Source of the DNA: a virus | Lineage: Duplodnaviria > Caudoviricetes | IMG/VR virus record: IMGVR_UViG_3300030055_000003 | DNA length: 64,000 nt | Strand: one strand, 5' to 3' | In this document: positions 3,739 through 64,000 of the stretch, piece after piece | Position numbering within the stretch: position 1 is the stretch's first letter | Layout: each line of letters begins with the position of its first letter | Notes under the pieces: generated by a model | Database searches by the model: none | What the model saw: the letters and a program-made list of their open reading frames with translations, nothing else | Told to the model about the DNA's origin: nothing | Made by a program: the position numbers and the translations under genes

Positions 3739-3767
3739 AGTATAAGTCATGACTTAGATTTAGTCAA
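3739..3767 (-). promoter_or_regulatory. SigA promoter overlapped by the palindrome TAAGTCATGACTTA
   Basis: TTGACT-17-TATACT; palindrome 3743-3756, same core as 2543-2560. Confidence 0.75.
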
Positions 3768-14466: not shown

Positions 14467-15117
14467 AAAACCACTCTCTTTCTTCTATTAATTTGTTTCA
14501 CTGTAAACCCTTTTGAACAAATAGAAACACTTGTCCAACTCCTATATTATAACTTTTAATAATGATTGTCAACTTGATTCTATTAATTTATTTAAATGTT
14601 GATATCGTGAATTATAATTCCAAACTAAAAATACTAAATTCTAAAAATTAAATATAACAACTTTCACATCAATTCTAATACTACTCTCCTATCACACAAC
14701 TACTATTTACCTAAAAACTAAAATACCCTATTAAAAATCTACACATGGAGCTTGTACAATCAATAATAACTATAAAATATCAACAGTTAAAAATAAACAT
14801 AAAAATAAGACTGTCCTTTTACAGACAATCTTACTATAAGGGTAAAAGATTAAATTTATTAAAAATAAAGATTAATAAATAATCAAAAAACTTTACACAA
14901 CTGAATTATATACTAAACTACTAATTATTTATAGATGTAAATTATGGTAAATAGAATTTGCAATAATAGAAGCATAGGGAGGGGGCGTACTTTTTAAATC
15001 TAAAATATAAGTACCTACATACTACCCTAGCCTTATATAAATGTAGAATAAATAATATAACAAGTTATTAAAAACCCTTTAACTACTTCAAGTAATAAAG
15101 TATTAAAAACCATATAT

Positions 15118-25111: not shown

Positions 25112-25398
25112 GCCACTATTTGACCTTATATAACATTAAAGGTCAAAGTAGTCACCTAAAAATAGAACGTCTGTGTGGAGCTTATAATGGCATTGTACCC
25201 TATATATAATTATATGTGAGAAGTTATAGTAATATGACTTCTTTTTTCATGTCTAATATTATAAATTTAAAATACAGTAAGTTTATAGTAATTAATAATA
25301 AAAATGTTTTTGACAGAAGTGGTGTTACACAAAAATATATTCGTAAACATTATATATTAATAAATTAATAGAAACACTATTGCAACAATTAGAATATT

Positions 25399-36239: not shown

Positions 36240-36690
36240 CTATTAAGCAATAAAGTAAATGTCGTTTCAAGATTAGGTATTTAACTTTGCTTTATAATGG
36301 TTTTATGTTTACCAAAACTTGAATAGGATTGATAATCTGAAAGAAAACATATGATACAAAACGCTGGTCAATATGCGTTTAATAAATGGTTGATTGGATT
36401 GAATAGATGGAGACGTTTTAGTTGTACCATCGAGACTAATTAGTCACTCTAGATTAATTAGATGTTGAAGATAGGCTTTACGCCAGTGATTAGGGAGTTG
36501 ACATAGGTAATTCTTCCGTAGATATATGTAATAGTCTATATTAAAAACCTACTATCAGAAAATTTCTAAGACAGGATTAAGGAAATGCGATAGCTATTCG
36601 TTAACTGGAAAAGCTTCCGATTATATGATACTCGAAGTACAAGAGTATTACCCTATAGAATTAGTGGACATAACCATACGGATAGGGATT
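36240..36690 (+). ncRNA. Candidate large structured ncRNA (ROOL/GOLLD-like setting; family not established)
   Basis: ORF-free, GC-enriched, many nested helices (e.g. 36359/36380, 36406/36431, 36436/36461, 36504/36551, 36628/36648, 36651/36687). Confidence 0.5.
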
Positions 36691-41931: not shown

Positions 41932-41960
41932 TTGACAGTGAATACTCTATGGAGTATAAT
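41932..41960 (+). promoter_or_regulatory. Consensus SigA promoter of leader A / HNH gene
   Basis: TTGACA-17-TATAAT. Confidence 0.85.
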
Positions 41961-41964
41961 TGTG

Positions 41965-42083
41965 ATATAGGATAGATAAGAAAGTCATGAGTCTTATTAA
42001 TAAGTGAGTGTTCCGAAACTCATTTCCTATATTCTAAATAATAAATCGGAATAAATTAAATGCAATCGGAGGTAATAAATATT
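41965..42083 (+). ncRNA. Three-way-junction leader RNA, copy A
   Basis: Outer stem 41965-41972/42025-42032, hairpins ATAAGA/TCTTAT and TGAGT/ACTCA; loop TTCCGA complementary to TCGGA(A/G) at 42046 and 42066 (RBS). Confidence 0.7.
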
Positions 42084-43045
42084 ATGGGGAAAGGTCAATT
42101 TTGGACAATAGAAGATGAAGAATTTTTAAAAGAAAATTACATATATTTATCGAAAGAAGAATTAATGAATAAATTTAATAATAGGACTTGGAAGGGAATA
42201 AGACATAAGGCTAATGATATGGGAGTTAAAAAACAAAACGACTATGAAAATATTTCAAACGATGAATTATATAAAATAGAAGGTGGAATAAAATATAAAT
42301 TATGTAAGTGTTGTAGAAGATATTTACCTTTGGAATTAAAATATTTTCCAAAAGACAATACGTGTACAGATGGGTTTAGAAATATTTGCAAGGAATGTAA
42401 AGGTGAGAACTTTGAGATTTCAAATGCGATTGATTGGACAGATAAAGATGTGGAGTTATTAAAAAAGTTTATTCCAATATGATAAATGAAGATATTATTA
42501 AAGAATATTTTCCAAATAGAAAAATAAAACATCTAACAGATAAATCTTCGAAATTAGGATTAAAGAAAAATAAAGAGACTTTTAATAGATGTAGAATTAT
42601 GAGTTGTGAGGGCAGAATTAAGATATCTAATATTAGAAAAATAGATGGAATTTTTAAAGGAAGAAATAATCCAATGTATGAATCTAAAAGATATGGTAAT
42701 CTTAATCCTAATTGGCAAGGTGGGATTACTTCAGAAAAAAGCAGAATAATGAATACTGAGGAATATAAAAATTGGAGAAAACAAGTTTTTGAAAGAGATA
42801 ATTATACTTGTCAATGTTGTGGTGAGAAAACACATAATAATGAAGCTCATCACATAGATAATTTTGCAGACTATGAAGATAAAAGATTTGATGTTGAAAA
42901 TGGAATGACTTTATGTAAGCAATGTCATAATCCAAATCAAGAAGGAAGTTTTCATAATACTTACGGAACGTTGCACAATAATAAAGAACAGTTAGAAGAA
43001 TATATTGAAAGTAAAACAGATAAAGATTTAAAAGTCGCTAATTAA
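42084..43045 (+). CDS. HNH endonuclease with Myb-like HTH repeats, split over two frames at 42461-42482
   Basis: WTIEDEEFLKENY and WTDKDVELLKK/YSNM repeats, the second spanning the junction; NPNWQGG..VFERDNYTCQCCG..AHHI..NGMTLCKQCH HNH core; probable start ATG 42084. Confidence 0.8.
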
Positions 43046-53421: not shown

Positions 53422-53450
53422 TTGACAATCTTTGTTAAAGATGTTAATAT
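53422..53450 (+). promoter_or_regulatory. SigA promoter of leader B / endonuclease gene
   Basis: TTGACA-17-TAATAT with TG extension. Confidence 0.75.
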
Positions 53451-53456
53451 AAATTT

Positions 53457-53575
53457 AGGAAGATTACTTAGTATAAGGTTCGAAACTTATACTAAGGACA
53501 GGGTTTTTCATGTGCCTTTCTTTCTTTTATAAAATACACATGAAAATAAATTATAACATGAAGGAGATAATACAT
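53457..53575 (+). ncRNA. Three-way-junction leader RNA, copy B
   Basis: Perfect 11-bp hairpin 53467-53496 with GTTCGAAA loop; TTTTCATGTG (53505-53514) complementary to 53537-53546 and ACATGAA 53556-53562 at the RBS. Confidence 0.7.
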
Positions 53576-55207
53576 ATGAATGAAAAGGAATATTTAGAAT
53601 TTATTAAACAGTGGAAAGAAGAGAATAAGGAATTAATTAAAAGTGGTAAGTGTAGAAAAACTTTTTTAGAATGTTTACCTAGGAAGTATGGAGTCGGTGG
53701 AAATAAAAATAAATTAGTTATTGATTGGATAAATTCAATTGGATATAATGTGTATTTTATATACGAAAATATTATAGGGTGGATTGAAATTATTAGTTAT
53801 AAAAAAGATAAAAGAATATTAAAAGTAAAATACAACAAATTTGAATCAGAGATAAATACTAATCAAATGTCAAACTGTAATATAGGAAGAATTATAGGAA
53901 AAATCACATCAGAATTCAAAATAGAAATTGGACAAACTTTTAAAGATAACAAAAGAGATATAACTGTAACTGATAAAGAAATTAGAATTAGATATAAAAA
54001 AGATGGTTCTTTGTGCAATGATAAATGGTACAAATACACTTGTAACGTTTGTAGTTGGAATGAAGGGTGGATGACAGAAGGAGATTTATTAAGAAAAGAA
54101 AAACGAGGATGTTCATGTTGTTCTGGGAAAACACTTATAGAAGGTATTAATGATGTAGCTACAATATCACCTTGTATAGTTAAATATTTTCAAGATGGTT
54201 ATGATGAGGCTAAGAAGTATACAAAATGGGGAAGTGGAAACCCTGATAATCCAAAAGGTTATATCTATCCTATCTGTCCTGATTGTGGAAGAGTTAAAAA
54301 AAAGAAAACTAATATTGGTTATATTTACAAATCACATTCAATAGGGTGTTCTTGTAGTGATAATATTTCAAAAGGGGAAAAATATGTTTTTAGTTTATTA
54401 GAACAAATAGGTATAAAATTTATAACTCAATTATCAAAAAGAGAACAATCGTGGTGTAATAATTATAGATATGATTTTTATTTTCAGTTAGGTAATAAAG
54501 AAAATTATATAATAGAAGTAAATGGACAACAACATTACGAAGAAAATACTAATTTTGAAATGAATTTGGATGAACAGGTAGAGAATGATAAAAACAAAAA
54601 AGAACTAGCATTAAAAAATGACACAAAAGAAGAAAACTATATTATTATTGATTACAGAAAAGCTGATTTAAATTTGCTAAGAAAAAATATATTGAATGAT
54701 AAAATATTAAATGAATTATTTGATTTAAGTAAAATTAATTGGATAAAATGCTATGAATTTGCTTTGTCTAACTTAGTAAAAAAAGCTTGTGAACTTAAAA
54801 AACAAAATCCTAAGATGACTACTACTGAAATAGGTAAATTAATGGGAGGATATTGTAGGCTTTCAATTCAAAAATGGTTAGAATCTGGTAATGAATTGGG
54901 CTGGTGTCACTATAATAAAAATGAAGAAATAAATCAAAATTATAAAAACAGTGTAATAAGAAATAAGAAAAATTATTCAAAACCAGTAGAAATATTTAAA
55001 GATGGAATTAGTCTAGGTTTATTCCCCTCAGCTAGTGAATTAGAAAGACAAAGCATAGAACTTTTTAAAGTAAAATTAATTAGAAGTAATATTACTTTAG
55101 TCTGCCAAGAAAAACAAAAGCATCATAAAGGTTATGAATTTAATTATTTAACACAAGAAGAATATGATAGAAGGAAAAATGAAGAAAATTTAAAACAAGC
55201 AATATAA
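53576..55207 (+). CDS. Free-standing Zn-ribbon + Vsr/DUF559-like endonuclease with NUMOD1-like C-term
   Basis: CNVC, CSCC, CPDCG; YRYDFYF..IIEVNGQQHY; HKGYEFNY; probable start 53576. Confidence 0.78.
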   Translation: MNEKEYLEFIKQWKEENKELIKSGKCRKTFLECLPRKYGVGGNKNKLVIDWINSIGYNVYFIYENIIGWIEIISYKKDKRILKVKYNKFESEINTNQMSNCNIGRIIGKITSEFKIEIGQTFKDNKRDITVTDKEIRIRYKKDGSLCNDKWYKYTCNVCSWNEGWMTEGDLLRKEKRGCSCCSGKTLIEGINDVATISPCIVKYFQDGYDEAKKYTKWGSGNPDNPKGYIYPICPDCGRVKKKKTNIGYIYKSHSIGCSCSDNISKGEKYVFSLLEQIGIKFITQLSKREQSWCNNYRYDFYFQLGNKENYIIEVNGQQHYEENTNFEMNLDEQVENDKNKKELALKNDTKEENYIIIDYRKADLNLLRKNILNDKILNELFDLSKINWIKCYEFALSNLVKKACELKKQNPKMTTTEIGKLMGGYCRLSIQKWLESGNELGWCHYNKNEEINQNYKNSVIRNKKNYSKPVEIFKDGISLGLFPSASELERQSIELFKVKLIRSNITLVCQEKQKHHKGYEFNYLTQEEYDRRKNEENLKQAI

Positions 55208-60205: not shown

Positions 60206-61033
60206 CTAGTCTTTTTGCTTAGTAGTGGATTTATTTTTAGAAATTTCATTGAAAAAATAAACAGAAGCATTTGATATAACTTGCAAGTCATTATCACTTA
60301 AATCTAATAATCCACCATGCGCATATATATTTCTTAATCTTGTTAAAAATCCAAGAAGTTCAGAAGAATTAGATTGCGAAGAAAGAATATTATAAATTAA
60401 GCGATACGATGGTATTAATTTAAATGTTATATTAAATTCTTCCATACTATAAATATAATATTTATCAATTTCATTTTTATATTTTTCATAGATTGATGGT
60501 TCACAATTTAAAACTATGTTATTTAATATTGAATTAAGATTAGATTCAATATTAAATTCCAAATCTAATTTAGATTGCATTTCTTCCATTTCAAGAATTT
60601 CTTTATCTGATTGAATTGGATTATAACCATTTTGTTCTTCAAATATTTCATTTTCTTTTATTTCTTTACGACCTAAAAGAAAGCCTGATTTATGTTCTTC
60701 TTTAAGTATATTAACCATTTTTAAAGTATATTGATTTAATAATGGTTTTTTATTATATTCGTGTCCAACCGCATCAGTATTACTAATATCCATCCAGTTT
60801 CCAATTTCAGAAGGTGGAAACATCTTTTGTTGAACTGGTTCTAATTCTAATAAATCATTAGGAGTACACCTAAAGAGGTCACATAGCAAATCAATATGTC
60901 CTTTATCAATTTTTTCAAAGGTATTATTTACATATTTGCTAATAGTATTTTTATTGATTCCAGTATAATCAGATACATCTTTTTGATTATATCGGCTATC
61001 TTTTAATAGTTTATCTAACTTCATTTTAGCCAT
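60206..61033 (-). CDS. XRE/Cro-C1 HTH transcriptional regulator
   Basis: QKDVSDYTGINKNTISKYVN..LCDLFRCTPNDLLE. Confidence 0.88.
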   Translation of the reverse strand: MAKMKLDKLLKDSRYNQKDVSDYTGINKNTISKYVNNTFEKIDKGHIDLLCDLFRCTPNDLLELEPVQQKMFPPSEIGNWMDISNTDAVGHEYNKKPLLNQYTLKMVNILKEEHKSGFLLGRKEIKENEIFEEQNGYNPIQSDKEILEMEEMQSKLDLEFNIESNLNSILNNIVLNCEPSIYEKYKNEIDKYYIYSMEEFNITFKLIPSYRLIYNILSSQSNSSELLGFLTRLRNIYAHGGLLDLSDNDLQVISNASVYFFNEISKNKSTTKQKD

Positions 61034-61119
61034 ATTCTCACCTCTTTTATAGTATATAACATTTTTTGACTATATGCAATAAAGGGATTTAATATTTACT
61101 ATAATACTTAAAAAACATA

Positions 61120-61148
61120 TTGACATTATACAAAAAGAGGATTACTAT
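61120..61148 (+). promoter_or_regulatory. SigA promoter divergent from the XRE gene
   Basis: TTGACA-17-TACTAT. Confidence 0.7.
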
Positions 61149-61279
61149 AGTTACATAAGGTAAGTTAATCCAACTTATCCAAATAAAAATAAGGCAACAA
61201 CAAAAATAGTTATCACCTAATCCCTCAACAAGATTAATGATAACACATTGTTTAGCCTAAATCAAGGAGATGTGTTAAT

Positions 61280-61768
61280 ATGGAAAGTATTATGCAAACA
61301 GGAATGAAAAGAGAAAATTACTATGAAGGAACAATTATTGATATCCGTAAAATTTTTGTAGGCTTTGGTCATTATCTTGAAAGGTTAGGTATTGAGGAAG
61401 AAGGAGAAATTTCAGATTACGAACAGTATCTTATAGAAGTGGACAAGCGAAGGGAATTGAAAAGGCAGGATGAGCATTTGCATTTGCTTAAATGGATTGA
61501 TGAAAATACAGATGATGACTTTCCATTTAAAATTTCTACTAGGAAAGAATTTGATAGGTTTTATAATTCAGATGATGAAGATGATATAATGGACATGCTG
61601 ATTATAGAATGTGATGAATTTTATGCTAGGTTTAAAGAAATAACAGGTGTAAATTTGTTGAGCAATAATGACTTTATAGAAATGTCATACATAGATGAAT
61701 CACAAAATGATATAGAACTTGTAGTTAGGATAAATGATAGACAGGAAAGATTTATTATAGGAGTTTAA
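61280..61768 (+). CDS. Acidic hypothetical protein
   Basis: 162 aa, AAGGAG RBS. Confidence 0.7.
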   Translation: MESIMQTGMKRENYYEGTIIDIRKIFVGFGHYLERLGIEEEGEISDYEQYLIEVDKRRELKRQDEHLHLLKWIDENTDDDFPFKISTRKEFDRFYNSDDEDDIMDMLIIECDEFYARFKEITGVNLLSNNDFIEMSYIDESQNDIELVVRINDRQERFIIGV

Positions 61769-61811
61769 AAATTAAATATTGTTTAAATGAATAGATATGA
61801 TATAATTAGAG

Positions 61812-61930
61812 TATAATAAAAGAAAAAGGAACGAATTGTAGTTCGTCCCTCAGCCCCAGCTCTAATTCAAGTGTTCGGCTCTCTACTTCAGAATACTTAA
61901 AATTAGGGCTATTATTATGTCTTGACTTAC
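61812..61930 (+). ncRNA. Candidate antisense antitoxin RNA (ends approximate)
   Basis: TGnTATAAT at 61798-61806, no sense ORF, overlaps the 3' end of peptide gene 61883..62017. Confidence 0.45.
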
Positions 61931-62017
61931 GCCATTATTAATAGCGTATATAACTAACTCAATAGCCAAAGAGAATAACAATAGTGTGCTAAAGCTTTTT
62001 ATGTACCATTCTTTCAT
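61883..62017 (-). CDS. 44-aa hydrophobic peptide, type I toxin-like
   Basis: AAAGGAGGTG RBS; MKEWYIKSFSTLLLFSLAIELVIYAINNGVSQDIIIALILSILK; terminator hairpin about 61823-61845. Confidence 0.7.
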   Translation of the reverse strand: MKEWYIKSFSTLLLFSLAIELVIYAINNGVSQDIIIALILSILK

Positions 62018-62310
62018 AAAAACACCTCCTTTATAAAGTATTTTATTTTGGAAACAATAATATTTCTAATGTAAAATACTTTAAAGAAGATGGCAAAGAG
62101 TTATGAATGGATACAATATTCTATATTAATTTAGATATAATGTTTTATTTTAAATAGGTTTAGTTTCATTTTCATAACATTTCATTTTTTCCCTTTATCT
62201 ATTTTAATATAGTATGTTTATTATACCATAAAATTGGAAAACTGTAAAATTAGATATAAAATTTTAGGATTGATTATAAATTACTTGAAAAAGTGTTATA
62301 ATATAGATAT

Positions 62311-62432
62311 GGAAGGATAGATATATGAAGGGTTGCAAACTGGATTATATTGATAAGTGAATTTCGACCTCACTTCCTTTCTATTTTTATAAAATGGTCG
62401 AATAAATTAAATTATGAAAGGTCGAGATTGTA
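62311..62432 (+). ncRNA. Three-way-junction leader RNA, copy C
   Basis: Outer stem GGAAGGA/TCCTTTC, hairpin AAGTGA/TCACTT; loop TTCGACC(T) complementary to GGTCGAA 62396-62402 and AGGTCGA 62419-62425. Confidence 0.72.
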
Positions 62433-63983
62433 ATGGAGGATAATAAACAACTAAATCAAGAAGAATATATGGAGATTATTGAAAAATTTAAAAAAGAAAA
62501 TAAAGAAGATTATGAAAAGGGTAAGATTAGAAAGGTATTTGATGAAAATCTTATATATAGTAAAAGTGGAAGAACTATTCATTGGAATGCTAGTATAGGT
62601 TATCAAGTATATTTTATACATGAAAATATAGAAGGATGGCTTAAAATAATTAATTATGATGTAAAAACAAGAAAATTAACAATAGATTATAATAATGAAT
62701 TGTTTTATATATTTTATGGAGATTTTTGCAAAGGTGGATTGTGTGCTATTTTGGGAATTGTTACAGTAGATTTCAAAATAGAAATAGGACAAACATTTAA
62801 AGATGATAAAAGAGATTTAACTATTATTAATAGAGAATATAGAAAAGAAGAACATATTGATAAAAAAGGTAGAAAAAGTATAGTGAATTTAAAATACTAC
62901 ACATATAAGTGTAATAAATGTGGGCACAAAGGATTGTCATTAGAAGGGTCATTATTACGACAAAAGACAGGCTGTGCATGTTGTAATTCATCTAATAGAA
63001 CTGTTGTATTGGGGATTAATACAATATATGATACTGATAAATGGATGATTCCATATATAGGTGAAGAATGTGCCAAAACTCATACTCATGGTAGCAATAA
63101 AAAAGTTGAAGTAACTTGTCCCGATTGTGGAAGAATTAAAAACAAACCTATGACAATAGGTAATATTTATAAACGACATTCAATAGGATGTCATTATTGT
63201 TCTGATTCTGTAAGTTATCCAAATAAATTTGCATATGAACTATTAAATCAATTAAATAAAATATATAAATTTATTTATTTTCAACATGAATATTCACCAT
63301 CTTGGCTAGGTCAAAGAAGATTTGATAATTATTTTATATATAATGATAAAGAATACATAATAGAGATGGACGGAGGATTAGGTCATGGTAAAGGAAATTA
63401 TAAAAATAACATGACATCTGAAGAATCTAAAGCTATTGATGATGAAAAAGATAGATTAGCTAAAGAACACAATATTGAAGTAATCAGAATAGATTGTGAA
63501 ATAAGTAGTTTGGATTATATTAAAAAACATATATTAGAAAGTAATTTAAATAAATTATTTGATTTAAGCAAAATAAATTGGCTAAAAGTCGAAGAATTTG
63601 CATTATCTAATTTAGTTAAAGAAGCTTGTAATTTATGGGATAGTGGTATTCATGATACTTTGAAAATTGCTGAGATAATGAAATTATCGAGACCTACAAT
63701 TACAACATATCTCAAAAAAGGTTCAAAGGAAGTATCTTGGTGTGAATATAACCCTAATGAAGAAAGTAAAAAAGGTACTATTCAATGCAAACAAGTTAAT
63801 AAAAAACCTTTAGAAGTATTTAAAGATAATATTTCTAAAGGAATATTTGAATCTGCTAGTGAATTAATAATAATAAGTGAAAAGTTATTCGGAGTTAAAT
63901 TTGATTTTAGAAAAATATCATTAGTTTGTCTAGGAAAACAAAAGAAACATAAAGGATATACATTTAAATATATAATGAATTGA
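62433..63983 (+). CDS. Free-standing Zn-ribbon + Vsr/DUF559-like endonuclease, paralog of 53576..55207
   Basis: FKIEIGQTFKD, CNKC, CACC, CPDCG, RRFDNYF..IIEMDGGLGH, HKGYTFKY. Confidence 0.78.
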   Translation: MEDNKQLNQEEYMEIIEKFKKENKEDYEKGKIRKVFDENLIYSKSGRTIHWNASIGYQVYFIHENIEGWLKIINYDVKTRKLTIDYNNELFYIFYGDFCKGGLCAILGIVTVDFKIEIGQTFKDDKRDLTIINREYRKEEHIDKKGRKSIVNLKYYTYKCNKCGHKGLSLEGSLLRQKTGCACCNSSNRTVVLGINTIYDTDKWMIPYIGEECAKTHTHGSNKKVEVTCPDCGRIKNKPMTIGNIYKRHSIGCHYCSDSVSYPNKFAYELLNQLNKIYKFIYFQHEYSPSWLGQRRFDNYFIYNDKEYIIEMDGGLGHGKGNYKNNMTSEESKAIDDEKDRLAKEHNIEVIRIDCEISSLDYIKKHILESNLNKLFDLSKINWLKVEEFALSNLVKEACNLWDSGIHDTLKIAEIMKLSRPTITTYLKKGSKEVSWCEYNPNEESKKGTIQCKQVNKKPLEVFKDNISKGIFESASELIIISEKLFGVKFDFRKISLVCLGKQKKHKGYTFKYIMN

Positions 63984-64000
63984 AAAGGAGAGATATTATG

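Follow-up and report, generated by a model that had tools for sequence, protein, structure and literature searches.

Folded leader RNAs of phage nuclease genes: an apparent AT-rich branch of the int-alpA class with a proposed loop-to-ribosome-site pairing

Homing endonuclease genes are toxic passengers, and their silencing is, to our knowledge, known mainly for T4. The 64,000-nt stretch of phage DNA analysed here (the window; 25.6% GC) raises the question of what kind of RNA precedes its nuclease cassettes and what that RNA might do. An initial annotation placed endonuclease genes at 42084, 53576 and 62433, each behind a leader in which an outer stem encloses two hairpins and a linker leads to two sites complementary to the leader's own second hairpin loop; no described family was recognised in it. 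Here we argue that these leaders are most plausibly a previously undetected branch of a known, uncharacterised RNA class, for which we propose a specific pairing mechanism.

Three leaders in the window and their genes

Leaders A, B and C follow a common plan (Table 1): a promoter, a three-way junction of helices P1, P2 and P3, an AU-rich linker, and then two sites, T1 and T2, both complementary to the P3 loop, with T2 overlapping or abutting the Shine-Dalgarno (SD) sequence. In each of them the module of ~70 nt starts ~7-10 nt 3' of the promoter. Folds and positions bore out the outer stem around two hairpins, the linker and the two loop-complementary sites for all three leaders, and every loop and target word first listed was found where it had been placed. 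The predicted loop-to-site duplexes range from -7.6 to -15.5 kcal/mol among the three.

When folded alone, the 5' modules of A (z -2.85), of B (z -3.80) and of an IMG/VR homolog, D (z -3.55), formed an outer stem around two hairpins. Leader C took the three-way-junction fold only if cut before its U-tract (-12.6 kcal/mol), and its 83-nt and 141-nt folds were no better than shuffles (z -0.10 and +0.39, respectively), so that copy C, first presented as the clearest example, is not so thermodynamically. The initial claim that each leader has its own SigA promoter stands for A and B, which have full sigma-70-type promoters; leader C has an extended -10 with no recognisable -35, and a consensus scan gave no -35/-10 pair there. 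No canonical intrinsic terminator was found between RNA and gene in leaders A, B or C.

Table 1. Coordinates of the leader features and cargo genes in the window.
Feature	Position	Strand	Details
Leader A	41964-42083	+	
A promoter	41932-41960	+	TTGACA-17-TATAAT, 12/12 consensus match
A P1	41964-41972 with 42025-42033	+	fold
A P2	41975-41998	+	fold; loop AAGUCAUGAG
A P2 loop	41982-41991	+	
A P3	42003-42024	+	loop GUUCCGAA; loop word TTCCGA inside 42010-42017
A T1	42046-42051	+	TCGGAA
A box	42050-42058	+	AATAAATTA
A T2	42065-42070	+	ATCGGA; SD GGAGG 42068-42072
Cargo A, first ORF	42084-42482	+	132 aa; no Pfam domain
Cargo A, second ORF	42479-43045	+	HNH endonuclease, 188 aa; overlaps the 132-aa ORF by ATGA
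Leader B	53457-53575	+	
B promoter	53422-53450	+	TTGACA-17-TAATAT with TG (extended -10), 10/12 match
B P1	53457-53463 with 53519-53525	+	fold
B P2	53467-53496	+	fold; UUCGAA in loop
B P2 loop	53478-53485	+	
B P3	53500-53518	+	fold; loop UUUUCAUGU; loop word TTTTCATGTG at 53505-53514
B T1	53537-53546	+	CACATGAAAA
B box	53545-53553	+	AATAAATTA
B T2	53556-53562	+	ACATGAA; SD AAGGAG 53561-53566
Cargo B	53576-55207	+	543 aa, paralog of the C protein; phrog_4538 and homing-endonuclease PHROG matches
Leader C	62311-62432	+	
C promoter	62294-62302	+	extended -10 TGtTATAAT, read directly from the sequence
C three-way junction	62311-62381	+	constrained fold, -12.6 kcal/mol
C P1	62311-62317 with 62376-62381	+	
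C P2	62320-62326 with 62346-62352	+	UUGCAA in loop
C P2 loop	62327-62345	+	
C P3	62355-62360 with 62370-62375	+	loop 62361-62369 (AUUUCGACC); word TTCGACC 62363-62369
C T1	62396-62402	+	GGTCGAA; loop:T1 duplex -11.0 kcal/mol
C box	62401-62409	+	AATAAATTA, between T1 and T2
C T2	62419-62426	+	AGGTCGAG; loop:T2 duplex -15.5 kcal/mol; 7 nt before ATG 62433
Cargo C	62433-63983	+	516-aa Cys-rich homing-endonuclease-type protein; phrog_4538, weaker HNH/homing-endonuclease PHROG matches; no Pfam domain

The cassettes sit between structural-type genes. For cargo B and C the homing-endonuclease type is assigned from PHROG matches only; with that reading the endonuclease genes first placed at 53576 and 62433 stand, and the ORF at 42084 has no nuclease domain, the HNH endonuclease of cassette A being the ORF that follows it. 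The ORF caller placed the start of gene B at 53510, where an in-frame ATG falls within the P3 loop of its leader; the start with an SD sequence is 53576. Deposited phages yielded no megablast match to 61000-64000. The closest annotated homolog of the C protein, from Clostridium phage vB_CpeS_BG3P (41.7% identity), is preceded by a plain promoter only and by no leader of the A/B/C type; the leader is therefore not tied to the C protein family.

The box AATAAATTA lies between T1 and T2 in A, B and C, and also in leaders of contigs G001, G002 and G020. It had been taken for a spacer belonging to the leader design, a view that does not hold: most family members (among the matches listed) have no box, the L055 group has only 3 nt between T1 and T2, and the window contains 54 copies against 16.6 expected, a 3-fold excess. 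Of these copies, 39 (72%; 12 expected) are intergenic, 46 of 52 share the orientation of the neighbouring genes, and many stand 11-35 nt upstream of start codons; the 54 copies include those at 25359, 27893, 32926, 41378, 49799, 58140 and 58809, and on the minus strand at 14592, 10145 and 9495. The related phage contig G001 has 80 copies against 35 for a control, and there the strand of the box switches with gene orientation. Extended, the consensus reads roughly AATAAATTAAtAgAA over ~15 nt, and no element is conserved upstream of it. The box is a genome-wide, gene-start-associated feature of this phage lineage, outside the leader family, and is probably a phage-specific promoter-like or transcription-unit signal.

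Several other features of the window were recorded. A strong sigma-70-type promoter (11/12 plus TG) at 62248-62220 on the minus strand is directed away from leader C, and the ORF-poor stretch downstream of it (61770-62220) may hold a small minus-strand gene or RNA. A perfect palindrome, AAGTCATGACTT, occurs at 2546-2557 and 3744-3755 between the -35 and -10 of minus-strand sigma-70-type promoters, which stand back to back with a AATAAATTA box; it resembles the P2 loop of leader A and may be an operator or a coincidence. The sole Rfam family in the window at its curated threshold is a drum RNA (RF02958; 55.9 bits, gathering 43) at 36245-36355 (+).

A widespread family and its relation to int-alpA

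Searching IMG/VR with the C protein yielded three loci, and a 41%-identical homolog proved to have the same leader type with a new word (loop CTCCAAT, ATTGGAG twice). A covariance model trained on A, B, C and the leader of this homolog found only the three known copies in the window (next best 20 bits) and, elsewhere, more copies with further words in contigs G001 and G003. Model R1 gave leader C, one of its training sequences, 107.8 bits. Two IMG/VR pattern scans anchored on the P2 loop AAGTCATGAG extended the set to at least ~70 distinct leaders, many from GC-richer phages. Minimum-free-energy parsing gave noisy results, as its nested model can form the loop-T1 helix only at the expense of P1 and P3; it was replaced by a rule-based parser, which together with hand-parsed copies gave at least 47 members from IMG/VR phage contigs that differ in their P3 loops.

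All 47 listed members keep the order of promoter -10, P1, UA, P2, GAAAA or GAUAA, P3, P1 3' strand, U- or AU-rich linker, T1, T2 and start codon, and in most members (among the matches listed) the -10 box lies 6-10 nt upstream of P1. A U-run directly 3' of P1 is present in leaders B, C and D, in the L055 type and in many GC-rich members, and absent from A, L009 and L010. The leaders are a real, widespread family of folded RNAs. The idea of a separate address for each element agrees with the words of A, B and C, which are all distinct, and fails for two G001 leaders, which carry the one word ATTGGAG.

Helix covariation was scored on 24 AT-rich members in an alignment fitted to the model, a caveat that applies to each of these values: 81% of cells were paired, where shuffles gave 61% and none of 500 reached the observed level; the covariation score was 0.594 against 0.246 in shuffles and 0.11-0.18 in slid-register controls, and 19 of 22 pairs showed changes on both sides. 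A MAFFT alignment of 48 cores left P3 and the P1 3' strand too poorly aligned for a third covariance model. Among 52 distinct cores there are 35 different P2 stems, and the six pairs beside the loop comprise 279 Watson-Crick pairs, 31 G-U, 0 A-C and 2 others. Because G-U is tolerated and A-C never occurs, P2 behaves as RNA read from the gene's strand and not as a DNA palindrome. The element is accordingly an RNA of the sense strand, and it lies at the 5' end of the transcript to which it belongs.

The genes behind these leaders are diverse. Low-GC members precede GIY-YIG genes with NUMOD3 and AP2, NUMOD1/I-HmuI-like, SegE-like GIY-YIG, T5orf172/MUG113 and HNH genes and genes for DUF4379 treble-clef zinc-finger proteins; GC-richer members precede DUF1376, HNH and proteins of unknown function. 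The class is strongly, though not exclusively, linked to free-standing nuclease genes; the DUF1376 and unknown-function genes mean that it is not specific to them, contrary to what had first been supposed. In low-GC phages the promoter and leader travel as a portable module with nuclease genes of at least four kinds (HNH, GIY-YIG, T5orf172 and zinc-ribbon/DUF4379). In three related phages (L131, L133 and L134, on IMG/VR contigs G008, G005 and G007, ~1500-1640), a near-identical leader with the word CCTCATT and AATGAGG twice precedes three unrelated genes, encoding a 436-aa protein, a 364-aa HNH endonuclease and a long zinc-ribbon protein; this leader marks a slot for the exchange of nuclease genes. 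Group I introns (Rfam RF00028, 70-89 bits) at L145 5073-5389 and 5486-5822 and at L176 660-980 share phage contigs with leader-bearing nuclease cassettes.

We found a described relative in int-alpA, the Rfam RF02996 RNA motif of Weinberg et al. 2017 (PMC5737381); the main text of that paper does not mention it. Rfam types it as 'Gene; sRNA'. Our literature search returned no functional study of int-alpA and none on pseudoknots in leaders of homing endonuclease genes. The int-alpA consensus is a three-way junction consisting of P1, a short J1/2 (UAG), a P2 hairpin, J2/3 CGAAAAG and a P3 hairpin, with a U-rich 3' tail ending in AgGG. The three-way junction is common to int-alpA and the window leaders, as judged from the folds of A, B, D and C and the covariation in 24 relatives.

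GC-rich members connect the two. L173 9511-9579, which has the same loop/T1/T2 design upstream of a DUF4379 zinc-finger gene, passes the curated int-alpA gathering threshold (40.4 bits against 35.8). L197 reaches 33.9 bits with P1, UAG, P2, CGAAAAG and P3 aligned; int-alpA is the only Rfam match of 7 of 9 further GC-rich members (27-33 bits) and, overall, the only family-level Rfam match of eight GC-rich members (27-34 bits). Model R2, trained on leaders of the window type, picks up AAGUCAUGAG-type members with a GC content of 38-40% (L173 4525-4645 and L235). Members of this type match int-alpA alone (27-34 bits), so the window leaders are linked to accepted members through intermediates; in L173 the AAGUCAUGAG-type copy and the threshold-passing int-alpA copy share one contig.

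The window leaders themselves matched no Rfam family at gathering threshold and none at E<=5 over 20 kb. For A and C, 161-nt scans gave no int-alpA match even at E<=10, and leader B was covered by the 20-kb scan at E<=5 only, with nothing found; the window copies thus lie below the int-alpA gathering threshold with no score at all. Their P2 loops are long (8-19 nt), and J2/3 is AAUAAG or UGAUAAG, or GAC in B, in place of CGAAAAG, with GAUAAG or GAAAAG before P3 in the intermediates. P1 is followed by GGAUAGAU in A and C and by UUA in B. The context also differs, being homing-endonuclease cassettes of a low-GC phage with no int/alpA gene neighbourhood, and a loop pairing with two sites, one of them on the ribosome site, is absent from the Rfam int-alpA structure line. 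Together, the shared junction and the intermediates indicate that the window leaders are a divergent AT-rich branch of the int-alpA architecture below the formal Rfam threshold. The window copies have no Rfam match at any threshold. The initial view that the leaders had no described relative gives way for the class, in which GC-rich relatives match RF02996 and nothing else, one of them above gathering. The current Rfam int-alpA model misses the AT-rich and long-P2-loop branches.

Pairing of the P3 loop and its possible role

A first comparison of own and other complementarity, between 30-nt and 87-nt regions, did not discriminate, and a test on parsed loops took its place. In this test the two best non-overlapping Watson-Crick matches between the P3 loop (±2 nt) and the 62 nt after P1 were summed, and each member's own loop was compared with all non-homologous loops among the 47 listed members with different loops. 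Own loops scored a mean of 11.55, and foreign loops 8.03 (sd 1.48). The own loop was better than every foreign loop in 20 of the 47; no foreign loop equalled the own loop of B or C, and 5% did so for A. Close homologs show the same dependence at single positions: between L165 and L185 the loop changes A to U and both T1 and T2 change U to A, and between L209 and L246 a U-to-C change in the loop goes with A-to-G changes in both sites. Covariation of loop and targets in homologs, which the initial annotation had set as one test of its proposal, was thus found. Loop, T1 and T2 varying in concert make an unusually clean comparative case for two alternative long-range pairings.

The geometry of the sites is regular. 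Medians over the 47 listed members are 11 nt from the end of P1 to T1, 9 nt between T1 and T2 (range 0-40) and 7 nt separating the end of T2 and the start codon, the last in keeping with the original placing of the second target on or beside the ribosome-binding site. T1 is at least as long as T2 in 36 of 47. In 40 of 47 the loop nucleotides for T1 and T2 overlap; hence one loop can hold one site at a time, and the pairings are mutually exclusive. L165 and L185 have no SD sequence, yet T2 lies 2-3 nt upstream of the ATG, which argues that the target is the initiation region as such. These comparisons show the P3 loop to be under selection to pair with two sites, one of them in the translation initiation region.

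Two other candidates were rejected. For a leader peptide, the tails inspected offered no suitably spaced start codon downstream of T1. A wider trans regulon was sought through the A, B and C words elsewhere in the window, which occur only inside coding regions.

The position of T2 suggests translational silencing by RNA-RNA pairing as the natural reading. We tentatively favour, at somewhat less than an even chance, a model in which such pairing would mask the translation start mainly in cis, with T1 as a decoy. The cassette would be a self-contained unit of its own promoter, a ~70-nt 5' three-way junction, an AU-rich linker and the two sites, and the variable P3 loop would act as an anti-ribosome-binding-site sequence. 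Pairing of the loop with T2, at the SD sequence, would block translation of the nuclease gene; T1, ~11 nt after P1 and using the same loop nucleotides, would compete with T2, relieving or setting repression. The leader would thereby be a two-state switch on its own mRNA, and the box, if a promoter, would, as in T4, start short loop-less transcripts that are free of this control. For int-alpA this offers a concrete proposed mechanism, a loop that alternates between decoy and ribosome site.

We favour cis on account of the compact unit, the constraint on the P1-to-T1 spacing and the lack of any visible terminator. The model has a weakness. T1 is made first, is nearer and usually has at least the strength of T2, so in pure cis the loop would be expected mainly on T1, with the ribosome site open; a trigger that moves the loop from T1 to T2 is missing from the model. 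The lack of a box in most members (among the matches listed) and the fold of copy C, no better than shuffles, also count against it. Two further points weigh specifically against cis: the loop words are replaced quickly in an otherwise conserved RNA, as selection for trans antisense specificity produces, and the U-run after P1 in many members could end a short RNA.

These last two points lead to a trans-acting antisense RNA like P1 c4 or P4 CI, which we consider rather unlikely. Most RNAs started at the strong upstream promoter would stop or be cleaved within the U- or AU-rich linker that follows P1, to give a stable RNA of ~70-80 nt whose free loop would silence T2 on sister or read-through mRNAs; T1 would neutralise the RNA's own loop on read-through transcripts, a role suited to a site at least as long as T2, and distinct words would prevent cross-talk. 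Duplicated targets, as in c4 and CI, rapid diversification of words with compensation at three sites, the distinct words of the three window copies, the U-run that directly follows P1 in the members named above, and the Rfam type of int-alpA are all consistent with this. It is opposed by the lack of a canonical intrinsic terminator, with A, L009 and L010 lacking even the U-run; by the constrained P1-T1 distance, which points to contact in cis; by the absence of an Rfam C4 match at any threshold; by the single recognition loop where c4 and CI have two; by the one word common to two G001 leaders; and by the window, which holds no further ribosome-site-proximal targets.

The P2 loops add a further argument for action in trans, since their palindromes could dimerise two RNAs over two sites. 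Among loops found without anchoring on the loop sequence, 6-nt palindromes flanked by purines recur as UCAUGA (A, L009 and L011), UCGCGA (L008), GUCGAC (D), UUCGAA (B and L171b) and UUGCAA (C and L264); besides those of the window leaders (Table 1), P2 loops were recorded in L001, L008, L171 8780-8924 and L264. Two of the differences between palindromes (AU to GC and CG to GC) preserve self-complementarity. The palindrome is not universal, the P2 loop of L173b being a plain GACG. The pattern suggests kissing-loop RNA dimerisation, resembling retroviral dimerisation loops. More broadly, the int-alpA class including its AT-rich branch might be a general sequence-addressed silencer, in which the 5' three-way junction would be released or dimerised through P2 and would shut off targets in trans via the two tandem sites, with T1 neutralising the loop on full-length transcripts; we hold this doubtful. 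If true, it would amount to a sharp, element-specific off/on switch on mobile nuclease and replication genes and would extend c4/CI-like immunity logic across phages of Firmicutes, Proteobacteria and others.

The trigger missing from the cis model would be provided if the three-way junction were a ligand or protein site (riboswitch-like or in a protein-controlled leader) or a 5' stabiliser, a reading we judge improbable. The loop-T1 pseudoknot would then be part of an aptamer or protective structure, and a factor would decide when the loop is released to T2. The structure does lie at the extreme 5' end, its junction nucleotides are conserved (UA before P2, GAAAA or GAUAA before P3), and a 10-nt P2 loop is conserved over phages of 25-55% GC. 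That conservation comes partly from the search, the pattern having been anchored on this loop, and B, C, D, L008 and L173b have other P2 loops; the invariant junction positions are few for an aptamer, and there is no candidate ligand or protein.

Purely temporal control of the T4 style, for which I-TevI, segB and mobE are the paradigm (PMC2988022), appears still less probable. The loop would mask the ribosome site on a long transcript from the host-type promoter, the box would be a late or middle promoter whose short transcript alone is translated, and T1 would have no function. The box does lie between loop and T2 in A, B, C and the G001 and G020 copies, and is enriched, intergenic and co-oriented with genes. 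It is nevertheless missing from most members (among the matches listed), and the 3 nt between T1 and T2 in the L055 group leave no room for a promoter; moreover, the covariation of T1 with the loop is no less tight than that of T2, so T1 is under selection. Finally, a DNA-level element (an operator, a recombination site or a target-site duplication around an inserted promoter) would accommodate the direct repeats on both sides of the box, the near-palindromic P2 and the AAGTCATGACTT palindromes within early promoters, and is very improbable given the G-U and A-C counts in P2, the strand-specific structure with covarying helix sequences, and the material between the repeats, which varies in length and sequence.

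Likeness to known systems

In the repZ/repA control of IncI-alpha and IncB plasmids (Rfam PK-repZ), a hairpin loop pairs with a short downstream sequence adjacent to where ribosomes bind on the controlled gene. Formation of this pseudoknot switches translation on, and a distinct antisense RNA blocks it. The leaders described here resemble this system in having a hairpin loop that would pair with a short downstream sequence by the ribosome site. They differ from it in that the second site covers the SD position and no separate antisense gene is seen.

The duplicated targets of c4 and CI are a1/a2 and seqA/seqC. The initial comparison with these immunity RNAs (c4 antisense mechanism: PMC8198154) is apt as an analogy: here too a small folded RNA stands just upstream of its target with short exposed recognition sequences, the targets are duplicated with one at the ribosome site, and specificity shifts by covariation. 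Unlike c4 and CI, the family has one recognition loop, not two, and both targets are downstream. Rfam C4 (RF01695) matched neither the window leaders, at any threshold, nor the GC-rich members scanned.

Homing endonuclease genes of the T4 type (I-TevI, I-TevII, I-TevIII, segB and Aeh1 mobE) have a structure that sequesters the ribosome-binding site, with a late promoter inside it (PMC2988022). As in those genes, the ribosome site of the nuclease gene in the window cassettes has its complement farther upstream in the same leader, and in the window lineage a promoter-like box, putatively a promoter, lies between the two pairing partners. T4 uses a simple hairpin; here the anti-ribosome-binding-site sequence is in the loop of a three-way junction, where it would form a long-range pseudoknot, and a second site competes for it. 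Unlike its T4 counterparts, the window-type module has its own host-type promoter and is conserved over very different phages and cargo genes.
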